Shown: positions 12,662 through 19,809, numbered from the stretch's first letter. The stretch is DNA of 64,000 bases from GCF_054482525.1 NZ_CM137006.1; one strand, 5' to 3'. Made by a program: numbers and translations. Notes: a model not told the origin generated them from the letters alone.

Positions 12662-13372
12662 TCAGAGCAGATTTTGCTCCTTCTTTGCACTCAACCCGCC
12701 GTAATCATTTATCGTCCGCCAGGAGACATGACACGGTGCTATTGCCTGACACCAGCTTGTCTGACGCTGGCTTTTAGGTGGCACAACTCCCGCATTACTT
12801 AACGCTTTACCATTTACGCTCACCTGAATCAGGTTAATGTAGTAAGGCGTTGGGTTAGTGAGTTGTACACCCTGCGAATTCCGTGTCCAGCGTAATTGTT
12901 GATAAGCTTCCAGCGGGTCGCCCGGCAAACCTTCGGGTCGCCAGAACAGTTTAAATACCGAGCGCATCGCCACTTTTACGCTCTGATTTTCAACTTTGCC
13001 GGATGGCACGCTGGCAATGCTTAACTCAAATAGCGTTTCGCGATCCACAGGCAAGATGTCGCTTTCCGTTCTCAGCAAGCGCAACGTGCCTGTAGTACCG
13101 GGCTTCAGGAGAACAAGTGGTGGAGCGACCAGTAGTGGTGCTGACCCTGTCGATGCTTCGCCCCCGGCCCAACGCGTTGGGCGATTGATTTTACTGTTAA
13201 TAAGCCAGGATTCCTGACTGGTATTAGTCAGTGAAATAGATATCGATTCTCTGTCTGCCGGGAAGATAAATCGCGTTCCGCCAACCACCACTCCTGCCTG
13301 CAATTCCCCCGCCACCAGCAGCGATAAAACGGCAAAAATCGCGAGCGTCAATCTGTTCCACGTATTAGTCAT
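12662..13372 (-). CDS. ycbF: Periplasmic fimbrial chaperone YcbF (PapD-like)
   Basis: ORF-track 12662..13399 trimmed to MTNTWNRLTL (236 aa); last gene of the elf chaperone-usher cluster. Confidence 0.8.
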   Translation of the reverse strand: MTNTWNRLTLAIFAVLSLLVAGELQAGVVVGGTRFIFPADRESISISLTNTSQESWLINSKINRPTRWAGGEASTGSAPLLVAPPLVLLKPGTTGTLRLLRTESDILPVDRETLFELSIASVPSGKVENQSVKVAMRSVFKLFWRPEGLPGDPLEAYQQLRWTRNSQGVQLTNPTPYYINLIQVSVNGKALSNAGVVPPKSQRQTSWCQAIAPCHVSWRTINDYGGLSAKKEQNLL

Positions 13373-13880
13373 AATGAAGTACAAATGTCGCGCTGGCATT
13401 CACTTTACCCGACTGCACATCGCTATTAACAGGTCGCAATTGCGCATAAAAAGTTAATGGCACCTTACCGCTATGTAGGCTGTAGTCTTTACTCGCCTGG
13501 TTAAGCGGAATCAATATTTTCGCATCATCCAGAATCGCAATTGCCAGCCCACTGGCTGCATCCGTACCACTTTCAATGGACAGCATTTCGCTCTGCATTC
13601 CGTCGGGTGTTCCTGAAAAGGTAACGTCAACCGTGCTGACATCTGTTCCGCAATCCTGCAAATTAATGATGAAAGATTTCTCCGGGCCATAGTTCCCATG
13701 AGAAAAACGTGTCAGCGAGACATCGCCTAACTGCACATTGATTTGCTTGCTATCCTGTGCCAGCACGCATGTATTACGGCGAAACGATCCGCTAATGTTG
13801 ACCGTGCCATCATGGGCAAATAGCTCACAACCCCCCGTTAATCCCAGTAAGAACAGAATCCAGATTATCCGTTTCAACAT
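13365..13880 (-). CDS. ycbV: Fimbrial-like subunit YcbV
   Basis: ORF-track 13365..13928 trimmed to MLKRIIWILFLLGL (171 aa); signal peptide; 8-nt overlap with ycbF start. Confidence 0.75.
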   Translation of the reverse strand: MLKRIIWILFLLGLTGGCELFAHDGTVNISGSFRRNTCVLAQDSKQINVQLGDVSLTRFSHGNYGPEKSFIINLQDCGTDVSTVDVTFSGTPDGMQSEMLSIESGTDAASGLAIAILDDAKILIPLNQASKDYSLHSGKVPLTFYAQLRPVNSDVQSGKVNASATFVLHYD

Positions 13881-13887
13881 CACTCCT

Positions 13888-14430
13888 TCACTGGTAAACC
13901 AGATCAAAATAGAGAACCGCCGTCGCATTACCGCCCGTTGCTCCCGCCTTTGTGGACTTATAACGAAGTTGATATTTGAGTGTGTTATCCCCGGCTTTTA
14001 AGGGCGTAAGAGGCTGGACCTGATTGAGCGGGATTTCTTGCTGACTTTGCGCATCAAGAATTTGCACGGCAATCCCCGTTGCCATACCACCGCTTCCGCC
14101 TGTGTCAGTTAGTTTGAGCAGTGTCGGCGCAAGGGTGTCAGCCTCGCCGCTAAAAAGGACGTCCGCGCCAGTAATACCAGCGGCACAACCGGTGATATCG
14201 ATATTCAAATCAGCAGCAGTGCTTACGGTATTCGCGGCCTGAAAATCACTGATATTAAAATCACCAATATGAATATTTTGTAATGCACTTTTGGTGGCGA
14301 CATCACAGCCCTGATCGACCACATTCCCATAAATATGCATACTAACTTGTTCAGGCCCAGCCATCCCGACATGGGTGTTAAGAAAGCTAAAGAACAAGAT
14401 AACGTACTGAAATATTGTTTTTTTCTTCAT
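13888..14430 (-). CDS. ycbU: Fimbrial-like subunit YcbU
   Basis: ORF track, 180 aa; signal peptide; C-terminal pilin-like tail (AVLYFDLVYQ). Confidence 0.8.
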   Translation of the reverse strand: MKKKTIFQYVILFFSFLNTHVGMAGPEQVSMHIYGNVVDQGCDVATKSALQNIHIGDFNISDFQAANTVSTAADLNIDITGCAAGITGADVLFSGEADTLAPTLLKLTDTGGSGGMATGIAVQILDAQSQQEIPLNQVQPLTPLKAGDNTLKYQLRYKSTKAGATGGNATAVLYFDLVYQ

Positions 14431-14441
14431 ACGTTCACGCG

Positions 14442-15512
14442 TTAATCAAAATTTATTCTCACCGTTGCCGTGGCTTCAAATCGCCCGGTTTCTGGTGGTA
14501 CGCCTGTCGTGCTGACCGGATAGACATTCATTCGCGCGATACTGTCTGCATCATCAGGAATAGAGAGCGGTAGAATTCCACCCGCCGGGGAAATTATGTT
14601 GTTCTGGCTGTCAGTCACCACAATGCCCACGCCAGGACGTGAAGTCTTAATCGCCTGGGGATAGCTGGGGTCTGAGGTTGCCGTCAGACTCAGGTTGACG
14701 TTAACTAACCCAGCGTTTCCAGTGTTACACCTGACTGGGACTGCAAGTTCTGCCGTTCTGGCCCCAAGAGGCTTATGCCCTACAACACGAAAGTTAGCCG
14801 CAAATACGTCGCCCAGATCGACCTCGATTGTTTCTCCGGCATTGACGGAACATGAGCCAAGTGAATTGATAGTACCAGACAGGTAATACACTAAAACCGG
14901 TGTACCTGTAGTCGTGCAGGAATCACCTGCGGGTATGTTGTAGCATTCAAATAATCGCGCCAGCGCCATAGGAGGAATGACGACCGAACCAACGAACGGC
15001 TGCAATATTTTCAGGGAAAAGCTACCGCTATTACCGCTAGCCCCCTGGCCGCCTAAACGTTGACCGCCGGGGTCACAAATATGCCACCGGGTATCTGCCC
15101 CTGTGCCCACGTTTTCAAAAGGAACCGCAGTAGGAGAACTGCCTTTAACCTGCAATAAAACTTTGGCGGCAAGATAGTCATTAATTTTGTACCAGTTGTC
15201 GCCTAAATAGACTAACGGTGAATCCGCGGCGAATGCCCATCGGCCACTTCTGACATTGTCTTTATCGCAATCACAGGAAACATAATAATCATTCGATTCG
15301 TTCCACTGATAAAATTTGTCTTTAACTACCCCTGCAGTATTTTCTTCTTCCTCCAGGGTTTTAACGCCAAAATTGACGCCAATATAGGGATTCCCCTGAG
15401 TGGTATGACACTGCCCGCTATAAGCAGCGGTTTGAGCGCACCATAGCATTAAGACGGCGGCAAAAAATAGTCGTAGTAATGACACGCATTTTTCTCCAAA
15501 GATTATCTGCAT
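14442..15512 (-). CDS. elfG: Fimbrial tip adhesin-like protein ElfG
   Basis: ORF track, 356 aa; signal peptide; follows the usher gene. Confidence 0.8.
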
Positions 15513-18103: not shown

Positions 18104-18127
18104 CTCGCTCTCTTAACTGAAGACGGC

Positions 18128-18829
18128 TTACGATTTGCAGTTGAGTTGCGGCGTTTCCGCCCCGTAGTCATTGATGGTTCGGTACGTTACGCTGTTATTT
18201 TTGGCACCCTTTGGCAGAGAGAATTGGTATTTATCAAAGGGGGAAATCATTTGATTTTTAACTACCTTTCCACCTATTTTCAGGTCTGTCAGGGTAATGA
18301 AATAAGGTGTTGGGTTACTGACCGTAACCATGTCAGCTGACGAAGTGCAACGCAGTTTCGCCGGAGCCTCGGCTAAGGGATACGCTAAACCTTTTGGTCG
18401 CCAGAAAAGTTTGATGACGCTTTGTGTGGCAATCTTCAGGGTATTGCCTTCTTCCCGCTTCGTTGTTGAAGGGACTGCCCGTACGCTGGTGAAGAAAAGA
18501 GTTTCTCTGTCTTTCGCCAACGGCGCGCCAATGTACATAATGCGTAGCAGGTTCTCGTTTGCCGGATTTAGCACAAATAGCGGTGGTGTAATAATAAAGT
18601 CCGCTGACTTTTTATTATCTGGTGTCATCACCCATGACTGAATCAGATAAGGAACATCCGGACTGGTGTTACGTACACCCAGTGAAATTTGCTCTTCACC
18701 TTCCGAATAAACAAGACGTGTTGCTGCAAGTCCGACCCCACCTTTACCTGCCGCCCATGTGAACGAACAGCTGAGTAATATTGCCGTTAAACTTACGGTC
18801 ACAATTCCCTTTGTTATGCAAGTTTTCAT
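18128..18829 (-). CDS. elfD: Periplasmic fimbrial chaperone ElfD
   Basis: ORF track, 233 aa; PapD-like chaperone with signal peptide. Confidence 0.9.
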   Translation of the reverse strand: MKTCITKGIVTVSLTAILLSCSFTWAAGKGGVGLAATRLVYSEGEEQISLGVRNTSPDVPYLIQSWVMTPDNKKSADFIITPPLFVLNPANENLLRIMYIGAPLAKDRETLFFTSVRAVPSTTKREEGNTLKIATQSVIKLFWRPKGLAYPLAEAPAKLRCTSSADMVTVSNPTPYFITLTDLKIGGKVVKNQMISPFDKYQFSLPKGAKNNSVTYRTINDYGAETPQLNCKS

Positions 18830-18911
18830 AAATAGTCACTCTTAAAAAATATGGATATCCCCTCCAGAACACTGGAGGGGGACTAATTAATAAAACAATT
18901 AATGTGTTCTA

Positions 18912-19454
18912 TTAATAATAGTTAATATGAAAATCCGTTACCGCATTAACATTACCTGAAGTCGCTTTACCCGTAGCGATATAATCAACTTTAAAAGTCA
19001 CTGTTTGCTCAGCGGAATCCGCTAACTGAATATTCGACGTTTCAATACCGGGAGTTACCGATGTAGAACCATCTGGCAGATACATTTGTAGAGCAACATT
19101 CGTCGCTGCATCGGTGGAAGCCTGGTTGGCAAATGCTGTAGGTTGCACTCCGTCAGCCGTACCACTGAAGGTAAAAGTCGCATTTTTAGTTACAGTAACA
19201 TCACAGCCTTCTAAGGCAATTGGTACATCAGTTTTAACGCCAGAGACTGCACCATTAGTTTGCAACTTGGTGGCGCTGACATTTGGCAATGTGACTACTG
19301 AATCTTTGTTCGCAGCTACCAGCGAACAAGCTGGAGCAATGACTTTACCATTAAATGTTACTGAGCCATCCGTGATAGCATTATCATCAGCTGCCATAAC
19401 ACTGGACGTTGCACATACCACAGTTATAAACGCCGTCAATACACTTTTTTTCAT
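18912..19454 (-). CDS. elfA: Major fimbrial subunit ElfA
   Basis: ORF-track 18912..19463 trimmed to MKKSVLTAFITVVCATSSVMA (signal peptide); pilin-like C-terminus. Confidence 0.85.
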   Translation of the reverse strand: MKKSVLTAFITVVCATSSVMAADDNAITDGSVTFNGKVIAPACSLVAANKDSVVTLPNVSATKLQTNGAVSGVKTDVPIALEGCDVTVTKNATFTFSGTADGVQPTAFANQASTDAATNVALQMYLPDGSTSVTPGIETSNIQLADSAEQTVTFKVDYIATGKATSGNVNAVTDFHINYY

Positions 19455-19809
19455 CGTTATCATCCTGATCTTTTCGTAAATATGATAATGCCTTTAAATG
19501 ACATTGGACTTAATAATAACAACAATTGTCCGCCATTTAAATCAAGCATCTTTAATCCATTAAGTGACAAATCTTTAATTTATAGATTTCATGAATATTT
19601 TCTTATTGCCTGAATGAGTAATTCATTGATTCAACATCTAATGACTATCCAATAAATAAATATGCGTGATATATAAAGCCCTTTCTTTAGTTTATTTTCA
19701 GAAAAAGATACACAAAATTTATATTTGGCATTTTCTTGTCTCTCCGACAGACTGACCGAATTGTTATCAATGTTAACAAAAAAAGAACAATTGGTTATAA
19801 GGAGAGAGT

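Follow-up and report, generated by a model that had tools for sequence, protein, structure and literature searches.

An intact seven-gene ELF/Ycb fimbrial operon and its second chaperone in a phylogroup-D strain of Escherichia coli

Introduction

The ELF (or Ycb) fimbriae of Escherichia coli are said to have been first described in O157:H7. They are assigned to the gamma1 group of chaperone-usher fimbriae (PMC7098969, PMC3559732, PMC4578781), have been visualized, and promote adhesion and biofilm formation (PMC7098969); surface fimbriae have been seen for both the K-12 and the O157 Sakai operons under artificial expression (PMC7098969; PMC5797941, citing Korea 2010). In K-12, the operon is cryptic and silenced by H-NS in the laboratory (PMC5797941, citing Korea et al. 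2010). Among related systems, Wurpel et al. described Auf and Ycb as close relatives whose occurrence is mutually exclusive, Auf being the counterpart in B2 strains (PMC3559732), and the CupB system of Pseudomonas aeruginosa has two chaperones, CupB2 and CupB4, with divided labour (PMC3031594). Here we analyse the ELF/Ycb operon, elfADCG-ycbUVF, in a 64,000-nucleotide stretch of DNA from a phylogroup-D E. coli strain (GCF_054482525.1 NZ_CM137006.1), which we call the window and from whose first letter all coordinates are counted.

An 8-kb region of the window has 100% identity to the E. coli PCN033 chromosome, in which RefSeq calls the same seven genes, and the PCN033 genome paper already records Ycb (PCN033_1033-1039) as an intact gamma1 cluster (PMC4578781). 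Earlier publications already cover the operon, the genes it contains, how it is classified, its silencing and how patchily it is distributed, and they do so for this very strain as well.

Results

Each of the seven genes is an intact orthologue of its K-12 counterpart, together they carry every sequence hallmark of the chaperone-usher pathway, and the locus is very probably the E. coli ELF/Ycb gamma1 fimbrial operon, complete and potentially functional in this strain. It consists of seven head-to-tail open reading frames (ORFs) on the minus strand, at 12662-19454, with pyrD and ssuE on either side; an ORF survey of 12662-19463 found no rival long ORF besides these seven. The same pyrD-[operon]-ssuE layout is found in E. 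coli K-12 MG1655. By position, the genes are the following.

12662-13372, minus strand: ycbF, second PapD-like chaperone, 236 residues (PapD_N and PapD_C; NCBIfam NF008483, 530.5 bits vs a cut-off of 357)
13365-13880, minus strand: ycbV, minor pilin, 171 residues, BcfF/FimF-like (Pfam Fimbrial; NCBIfam BcfF and FimF matches)
13888-14430, minus strand: ycbU, minor pilin, 180 residues, BcfE/FimF-like (Pfam Fimbrial; NCBIfam BcfE and FimF matches below the cut-offs)
14442-15512, minus strand: elfG (ycbT), putative two-domain tip adhesin, 356 residues (N-terminal receptor-binding domain at about 32-205, C-terminal pilin domain at 206-356)
15503-18103, minus strand: elfC (ycbS), outer-membrane usher, 866 residues (PapC_N 6.8e-49, Usher 1.9e-221, PapC_C 3.8e-18)
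18128-18829, minus strand: elfD (ycbR), primary PapD-like chaperone, 233 residues (PapD_N 4.7e-36, PapD_C 3.6e-15)
18912-19454, minus strand: elfA (ycbQ), major pilin, 180 residues, class II allele (Pfam Fimbrial 1.1e-16)

Pfam thus places the Fimbrial domain (PF00419) in four ORFs, PapD_N with PapD_C in two, and PapC_N, Usher and PapC_C in one. All seven proteins align end to end with their K-12 orthologues and have no internal stops. Six of them are ungapped and of equal length, namely ElfD (97% identical), ElfC (98%), ElfG (98%), YcbU (98%), YcbV (99%) and YcbF (96%); ElfA has 83% amino-acid identity with one gap (180 residues vs 179). Identity is therefore at the level of orthologues for all seven products, ElfA being a variant allele at the same locus, and the position between ssuE and pyrD is that of ELF/Ycb, as it also is in a Pseudocitrobacter-like contig. 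ElfC (usher model NF011740, 1739.7 bits vs 995) and YcbF score above the cut-offs of their NCBIfam equivalogs. An earlier reading of this DNA, made from the sequence alone (the sequence-only reading), had proposed a seven-gene cluster elfA-elfD-elfC-elfG-ycbU-ycbV-ycbF devoid of frameshifts and premature stops. The ORFs, the Pfam domains, the RefSeq calls in PCN033 and the K-12 orthologues bear this out, and the end-to-end alignments revealed no decay in ycbU, ycbV or ycbF.

The hallmarks comprise a three-part usher (ElfC), two-domain chaperones (ElfD and YcbF), pilin motifs and a two-domain adhesin (ElfG). ElfA, ElfG, YcbU and YcbV all carry a glycine at -14 and an aromatic residue (Tyr or Phe) at -2, which is Tyr in ElfA and YcbU; ElfA, YcbU and YcbV also have an N-terminal extension ahead of the first mature Cys. 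The next NCBIfam matches of ElfC after its own equivalog are FimD (946.8 bits) and LpfC (846.2 bits). These scores are compatible with the gamma1 clade of the usher-based scheme of Nuccio and Baumler, to which the published work assigns Ycb. In ElfG, the Pfam Fimbrial domain is confined to residues 211-356, and residues 33-356 match the solved two-domain LpfD adhesin 5AFO (E = 7.6e-27), which supports the label of tip adhesin. For YcbU and YcbV, the top scores are against BcfE and BcfF, followed by FimF, which fits their probable role as tip-fibrillum adaptors between the adhesin and the rod. These matches agree with the roles that the sequence-only reading had assigned, that is, a major subunit, a chaperone, an usher, a putative tip adhesin, two pilins and a second chaperone. 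The pair of residues that anchors the subunit is numbered Arg8 and Lys112 in FimC and PapD. When YcbF is aligned to FimC, GGTRFIF and FKLFWRP fall at these positions, both residues being retained; in ElfD, the pair lies in ATRLVY and IKLFWRP. Both chaperones are nearest to FimC and SfaE among solved structures (about 1e-51 for ElfD), and CupB2 (3Q48) is also among the structural relatives of YcbF.

Two of the start codons call for comment. For elfA, position 19454 is favoured over 19463, as it has an AGGA Shine-Dalgarno sequence 9 nt upstream and is also the start used in K-12; 19463, where the operon had earlier been taken to end, is the start of the longest ORF. The start of ycbF at 13372 (236 residues) is backed by the curated K-12 record and by the NCBIfam model, as the NF008483 alignment begins at residue 10 of the long ycbF ORF; the RefSeq/PGAP model uses an upstream ATG at 13399, giving 245 residues and a 35-nt overlap with ycbV. 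From 13372, the gene overlaps the ycbV stop as ATGACTAA. Neither ycbF start has a good Shine-Dalgarno sequence, which suggests coupling of ycbV and ycbF by termination-reinitiation. The ycbV start at 13880 is preceded by AAGGAG.

The genes are closely packed, with overlaps of 10 nt between elfC and elfG and of 8 nt (or 35 nt from the upstream ATG) between ycbV and ycbF, as had been read earlier, and with spacers of 82 nt (elfA-elfD), 24 nt (elfD-elfC), 11 nt (elfG-ycbU) and 7 nt (ycbU-ycbV). The regulatory features are as follows.

19455-19809, no strand assigned: divergent ssuE/elfA intergenic regulatory region, 355 bp, AT-rich (28% GC vs 51% in the whole window)
19541-19536 (-35, TTTAAA) and 19518-19513 (-10, TATTAT), minus strand: candidate sigma-70-like elfA promoter with a 17-nt spacer and a TG upstream of the -10 hexamer
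19468-19457, minus strand: putative SlyA-type site TCAGGATGATAA, retained from the K-12 spacer, where it was proposed as a SlyA site
18859-18880, minus strand: GC-rich hairpin of 9 bp, CCCCTCCAG-TGTT-CTGGAGGGG, in the elfA-elfD spacer, with a T6 run 9 nt later

In a promoter scan, the site upstream of elfA was the sole minus-strand promoter-like site near the operon, and both of its hexamers are invariant in nine strains of diverse lineages. Within the operon, the scan gave no minus-strand promoter-like site, and the counts of promoter-like and terminator-like matches did not exceed those expected from shuffled sequence. In K-12, SlyA binds the ssuE-elfA intergenic region, which H-NS represses, and array data show elfADCG-ycbUVF rising as a whole upon SlyA over-production (PMC5797941). 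The tight gaps and overlaps, the lack of internal promoter-like sites and this co-regulation support the single transcription unit that had been proposed for the seven genes. One might consider ycbU-ycbV-ycbF as an accessory module transcribed separately from its own promoter, as the cassette evolves as one block and the title of Samadder 2009 names ELF as ycbQRST only. However, the 11-nt gap between elfG and ycbU, the absence of a minus-strand promoter-like site inside the operon, the chance frequency of terminator-like matches and the K-12 array data, which give elfADCG-ycbUVF as one co-regulated unit (PMC5797941), make such an arrangement most improbable.

The claim that the operon is cryptic and silenced by H-NS has literature support for K-12 (PMC5797941), and the ssuE-elfA spacer of the present strain is 96% identical to that of K-12. 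This identity, the 28% GC of the region and the retention of TCAGGATGATAA are all consistent with H-NS silencing and SlyA antagonism here. Two other modes of control were considered and rejected: upstream of elfA there are only weak inverted repeats (75-78%), not a fimS-like invertible switch, and a single GATC site instead of the Pap-like pair, because of which phase variation of the Pap-type Dam/Lrp kind is unlikely.

The elfA-elfD spacer folds with a minimum free energy of -23.2 kcal/mol (z = -3.68), and none of 200 shuffled sequences folds as well. Its hairpin is kept in nine of nine strains; a single C-to-T change retains a G-U pair, and O157 loses the loop-closing pair only. By analogy with other fimbrial operons, this hairpin is probably a partial terminator or an mRNA stabilizer that raises the ratio of the major subunit. 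At the other end of the operon, a PyrD leader (Rfam RF02373; 12546-12619, minus strand) scores 97.9 bits against a gathering score of 47 and lies about 40 nt past the ycbF stop, so that the fimbrial operon ends directly on the pyrD regulatory region. An Rfam search of 12000-20400 at a permissive E-value found nothing inside the operon and only this neighbouring leader.

The operon is unevenly distributed among E. coli strains. At least 80% of it is present in 3,997 of 5,426 complete genomes and about 1,350 match at the flanks alone; about one complete E. coli genome in four lacks it, and some strains have IS1 or IS66 insertions in it. In two operon-free strains, ETEC4070 and APEC (avian pathogenic E. 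coli) IMT5155, pyrD abuts ssuE, which delimits the following segment.

12652-19741, no strand assigned: presence/absence segment, the operon plus 287 bp upstream, with identical junctions (window 12651 and 19742) in ETEC4070 and APEC IMT5155

In the empty sites (L003 3052-3120 and L004 8926-8994), about 69 nt of T-rich sequence with no relation to the window stand in place of the operon. The shared junctions point to one old event, either an insertion or a deletion, in which the 287 bp upstream of elfA were included, and the occurrence of the operon at the same locus in another genus argues that strains without it have lost it. ELF has been reported as absent from phylogroup B2 (PMC3559732, PMC8281228), which fits the empty sites.

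In O157:H7, the operon has decayed. The PV15-279 (L006) and Xuzhou21 (L017) assemblies share three frameshifts, namely C6 to C5 in elfC, A7 to A8 in ycbU and T3 to T2 in ycbF, at window-equivalent codons 165, 5 and 148, respectively; two of the three lie within runs of six to seven identical bases. Xuzhou21 has, in addition, a stop at R327 of elfG. The frameshifted elfC usher in these assemblies contrasts with the ELF/Ycb fimbriae reported from O157:H7, Ycb fimbriae having been imaged from the cloned Sakai cluster ECs1021-1028 of that lineage (PMC7098969).

Such losses raise the question of whether the operon might be a silent evolutionary relic in the strain under study, intact by chance, never expressed and heading for loss. 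It is cryptic in K-12 under laboratory conditions (PMC5797941), about 25% of complete genomes, B2 strains included, lack it (PMC8281228), and the shared O157:H7 frameshifts and the insertions in some strains point in the same direction. On the other hand, six genes are under strong purifying selection across divergent lineages (dS, the synonymous divergence, of 0.1-0.2, with omega, the ratio of non-synonymous to synonymous divergence dN/dS, of about 0.05-0.15). Omega is 0.03-0.15 for elfD, elfC, elfG and most ycbV comparisons, with elfD at 0.05-0.14. Moreover, 8 of the 10 strains compared have the full set of seven genes intact, the orthologous operon has been retained at the same locus in another genus, and the promoter hexamers and the hairpin are conserved. 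We therefore regard a relic as highly unlikely and retain the reading of a complete, potentially functional operon.

The gene that departs most from K-12 is elfA. Measured against the window allele, its identity is bimodal: at least 95% in 1,543 genomes, 80-90% in 2,306 and 90-95% in just 6. Of the elf-positive complete genomes, about 38% have the window-type elfA and about 57% have another type, which is about 81% identical to it; intermediates are almost lacking. The two classes diverge only within the central codons 46-150, in which synonymous changes are saturated (dS about 2), with a dN of 0.18 and an omega of about 0.1. Conservation extends over the donor-strand and C-terminal segments, and the sequence flanking the divergent segment is about 96-98% identical. 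By this pattern, elfA falls into two old allele classes, and the window carries the minority one (class II), which explains why its ElfA is just 83% identical to that of K-12. The saturated dS and an omega of about 0.1 speak for old alleles and not for recent diversifying selection, so that positive selection in elfA was rejected; the dimorphism points to an old balanced polymorphism or to an imported segment. RefSeq does not label the window-type allele elfA. The experimental ELF work that we found used class I strains (K-12 and O157:H7), the strain here being class II, and surveys that probe with O157 elfA could under-detect class II alleles.

A comparison of ElfG across strains, a check that the sequence-only reading had put forward for adhesin-domain variation, gave no sign of diversification, as both domains are conserved (omega 0.04-0.12). 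In strain PD23, elfG (L007 2443-3513) has 84% nucleotide identity and 38 amino-acid differences, 14 of them in the signal peptide, and the ssuE-elfA spacer has 88.7% identity, yet elfD is 98% identical. The PD23 operon looks like a recombinant mosaic.

The second chaperone, YcbF, is 36% identical to ElfD. Nucleotide searches missed the Auf chaperone, and a protein search with contig inspection was used instead. This search found YcbF relatives in Pseudocitrobacter, Citrobacter, Buttiauxella and Enterobacter, as well as a 41%-identical paralogue in E. coli. In the Pseudocitrobacter-like contig, the relative is the last gene of a colinear operon of seven genes, again at the ssuE/pyrD locus; in Enterobacter, it is the terminal chaperone of a Bcf-like operon; and in E. 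coli, the chaperone of the Auf-like operon (glgP-glpD) overlaps the second small pilin even though the adhesin-like gene has moved to the end. The pilin-pilin-chaperone module thus recurs in all three related operons examined. Identity is 39-67% within the group of first chaperones, 33-58% within that of second chaperones and 28-36% across the groups. In each of the operons, the second chaperone resembles YcbF (40-58%) more than it does ElfD (30-33%); for the first chaperone, the higher identity is to ElfD (43-67%) and the lower to YcbF (31-36%). Two separate orthology groups imply that the duplication predates the split of Ycb, Bcf and Auf, which makes ElfD and YcbF, on these identities, old paralogues. 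Together with the recurrence of the cassette, they indicate that the terminal chaperone is a family trait and not an anomaly of the elf/ycb operon; to call a second chaperone at the operon end unusual, as had been done from the sequence, is an overstatement, the more so as CupB2/CupB4 is documented (PMC3031594).

What YcbF does is a separate matter. It is the least constrained gene of the operon, with an omega of 0.27-0.46 within E. coli and an odds ratio of non-synonymous to synonymous changes, relative to elfD, of 3-6.7 (p < 0.05 in four of seven strain pairs, which are non-independent), and it is frameshifted in O157:H7. Among the K-12 single-gene mutants that have been phenotyped, that of ycbF alone was without an invasion defect (PMC4914927). 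Weak constraint, the O157:H7 frameshift and the lack of an invasion defect in K-12 lead us to favour YcbF as an auxiliary chaperone, partly redundant with ElfD. YcbF could instead be dedicated to the YcbU/YcbV tip module or to ElfG, without redundancy, and leave ElfA to ElfD, in the manner of CupB2/CupB4 (PMC3031594). Operons of the Ycb, Bcf-like and Auf-like kinds all keep the cassette as a unit with its overlapping pilin/chaperone junction, also after relocation of the adhesin gene, the second chaperones form an orthology group of their own, and an omega below 1 means that ycbF is still constrained. However, ycbU and ycbV deletions do cause an invasion defect in K-12 and that of ycbF does not (PMC4914927), and ycbF is both the most relaxed gene of the operon and frameshifted in O157:H7; a dedicated role is, on balance, less likely. 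The functions of the extra subunits and chaperone had been called poorly defined, which holds in part, given that the fimbriae have been imaged (PMC7098969) and the mutants phenotyped (PMC4914927).

Discussion

The features described above can be combined into a route of assembly that would follow the established mechanism of chaperone-usher systems. A single promoter in the AT-rich ssuE-elfA spacer would give one mRNA, from a region that in K-12 is silenced by H-NS and relieved by SlyA. The hairpin after elfA would yield more major subunit relative to the other products, and the downstream genes would be translationally coupled. In the periplasm, the PapD-like chaperones would cap the pilins by donor-strand complementation. 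The ElfC usher would begin assembly from the two-domain adhesin ElfG, the FimF/FimG-like adaptors YcbU and YcbV would follow, and ElfA would then be polymerized by donor-strand exchange into a rigid rod. YcbF, which travels with the two minor pilins, would most likely aid their folding or that of the adhesin, overlapping with ElfD; such an overlap would explain why its gene is the least constrained and most dispensable one.

Several points weigh against a functional operon or against this scheme. The operon has been lost from about 25% of genomes and has decayed in O157:H7, so it is dispensable in some lineages. The elfA promoter is a consensus match in a scan whose total was no higher than for shuffled sequence, and past ycbF there is no convincing intrinsic terminator, the fold there being no better than shuffled (z = -0.29). 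What the sequence of this strain supports is a potential to make fimbriae, and the positions proposed for the subunits along the fibre, like the partners proposed for YcbF, are drawn by analogy with type 1 and Lpf fimbriae. Furthermore, an obligate need of YcbU and YcbV for YcbF predicts that the ycbF mutant behaves as theirs, and the K-12 mutants differ (PMC4914927).

A more far-reaching proposal, which we consider doubtful, is that ycbUVF is a self-contained tip-fibrillum module with its own chaperone, inherited as a unit across Ycb, Bcf and Auf, and that the two elfA classes form antigenically or functionally distinct rods. If true, labour would be split between the two chaperones, ElfD being used for the rod and YcbF for the tip. 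With YcbF favoured as an auxiliary chaperone, its standing as a conserved and yet weakly constrained old paralogue pinpoints the question of which subunits ElfD and YcbF have as partners.

Among known systems, the operon is closest to the ELF operons (ycbQRSTUVF) of K-12 and O157:H7, with which it shares the ssuE-pyrD locus, the seven genes, their order and overlaps, six proteins that are 96-99% identical, and a regulatory spacer that is 96% identical, the SlyA-type site included. It differs from them in ElfA, which is of the other allele class and 83% identical in amino-acid sequence, and from O157:H7 in having no frameshift in elfC, ycbU or ycbF.

Salmonella Bcf (bcfABCDEFG[H]) and the Bcf-like operon of Enterobacter (L016) have the same succession of pilin, chaperone, usher, adhesin, two small pilins and terminal chaperone, and a Bcf model is the best or second-best NCBIfam match for ElfA, ElfD, ElfG, YcbU and YcbV. 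Yet the scores fall below the equivalog cut-offs (BcfA 119 vs 247, BcfB 207 vs 365, BcfD 124 vs 517, BcfE 125 vs 240, BcfF 114 vs 238), so that these are homologues and not orthologues, and elf/ycb has the Bcf architecture without Bcf membership; the genomic locus differs as well. The Enterobacter operon has an extra pilin gene that is absent from elf/ycb. In Enterobacter roggenkampii (L016 9730-10017), it is also trailed by a gene for 95 residues with a faint match to ScsC_N (thiol-disulfide isomerase-like), which elf/ycb does not have and which is reminiscent of Salmonella bcfH.

E. coli Auf, represented by the Auf-like locus L013 between glgP and glpD, likewise has seven genes and two chaperones, the second of which shares 41% identity with YcbF and has a gene that overlaps that of the small pilin before it; unlike in elf/ycb, the large adhesin-like gene (376 residues) comes last instead of after the usher, and the chromosomal site is another one. 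Type 1 (Fim) and Lpf fimbriae share the gamma1-type machinery, the usher being near FimD and LpfC, the chaperones near FimC and SfaE, the adhesin near LpfD (5AFO) and the minor pilins near FimF, but those operons have a single chaperone, and elf/ycb is without a fimS-type switch or recombinase gene. Finally, although P. aeruginosa CupB is distantly related and also exports the TpsA-like CupB5, it resembles elf/ycb in combining, in one usher operon, two PapD-like chaperones that are proposed to serve different subunits (PMC3031594).

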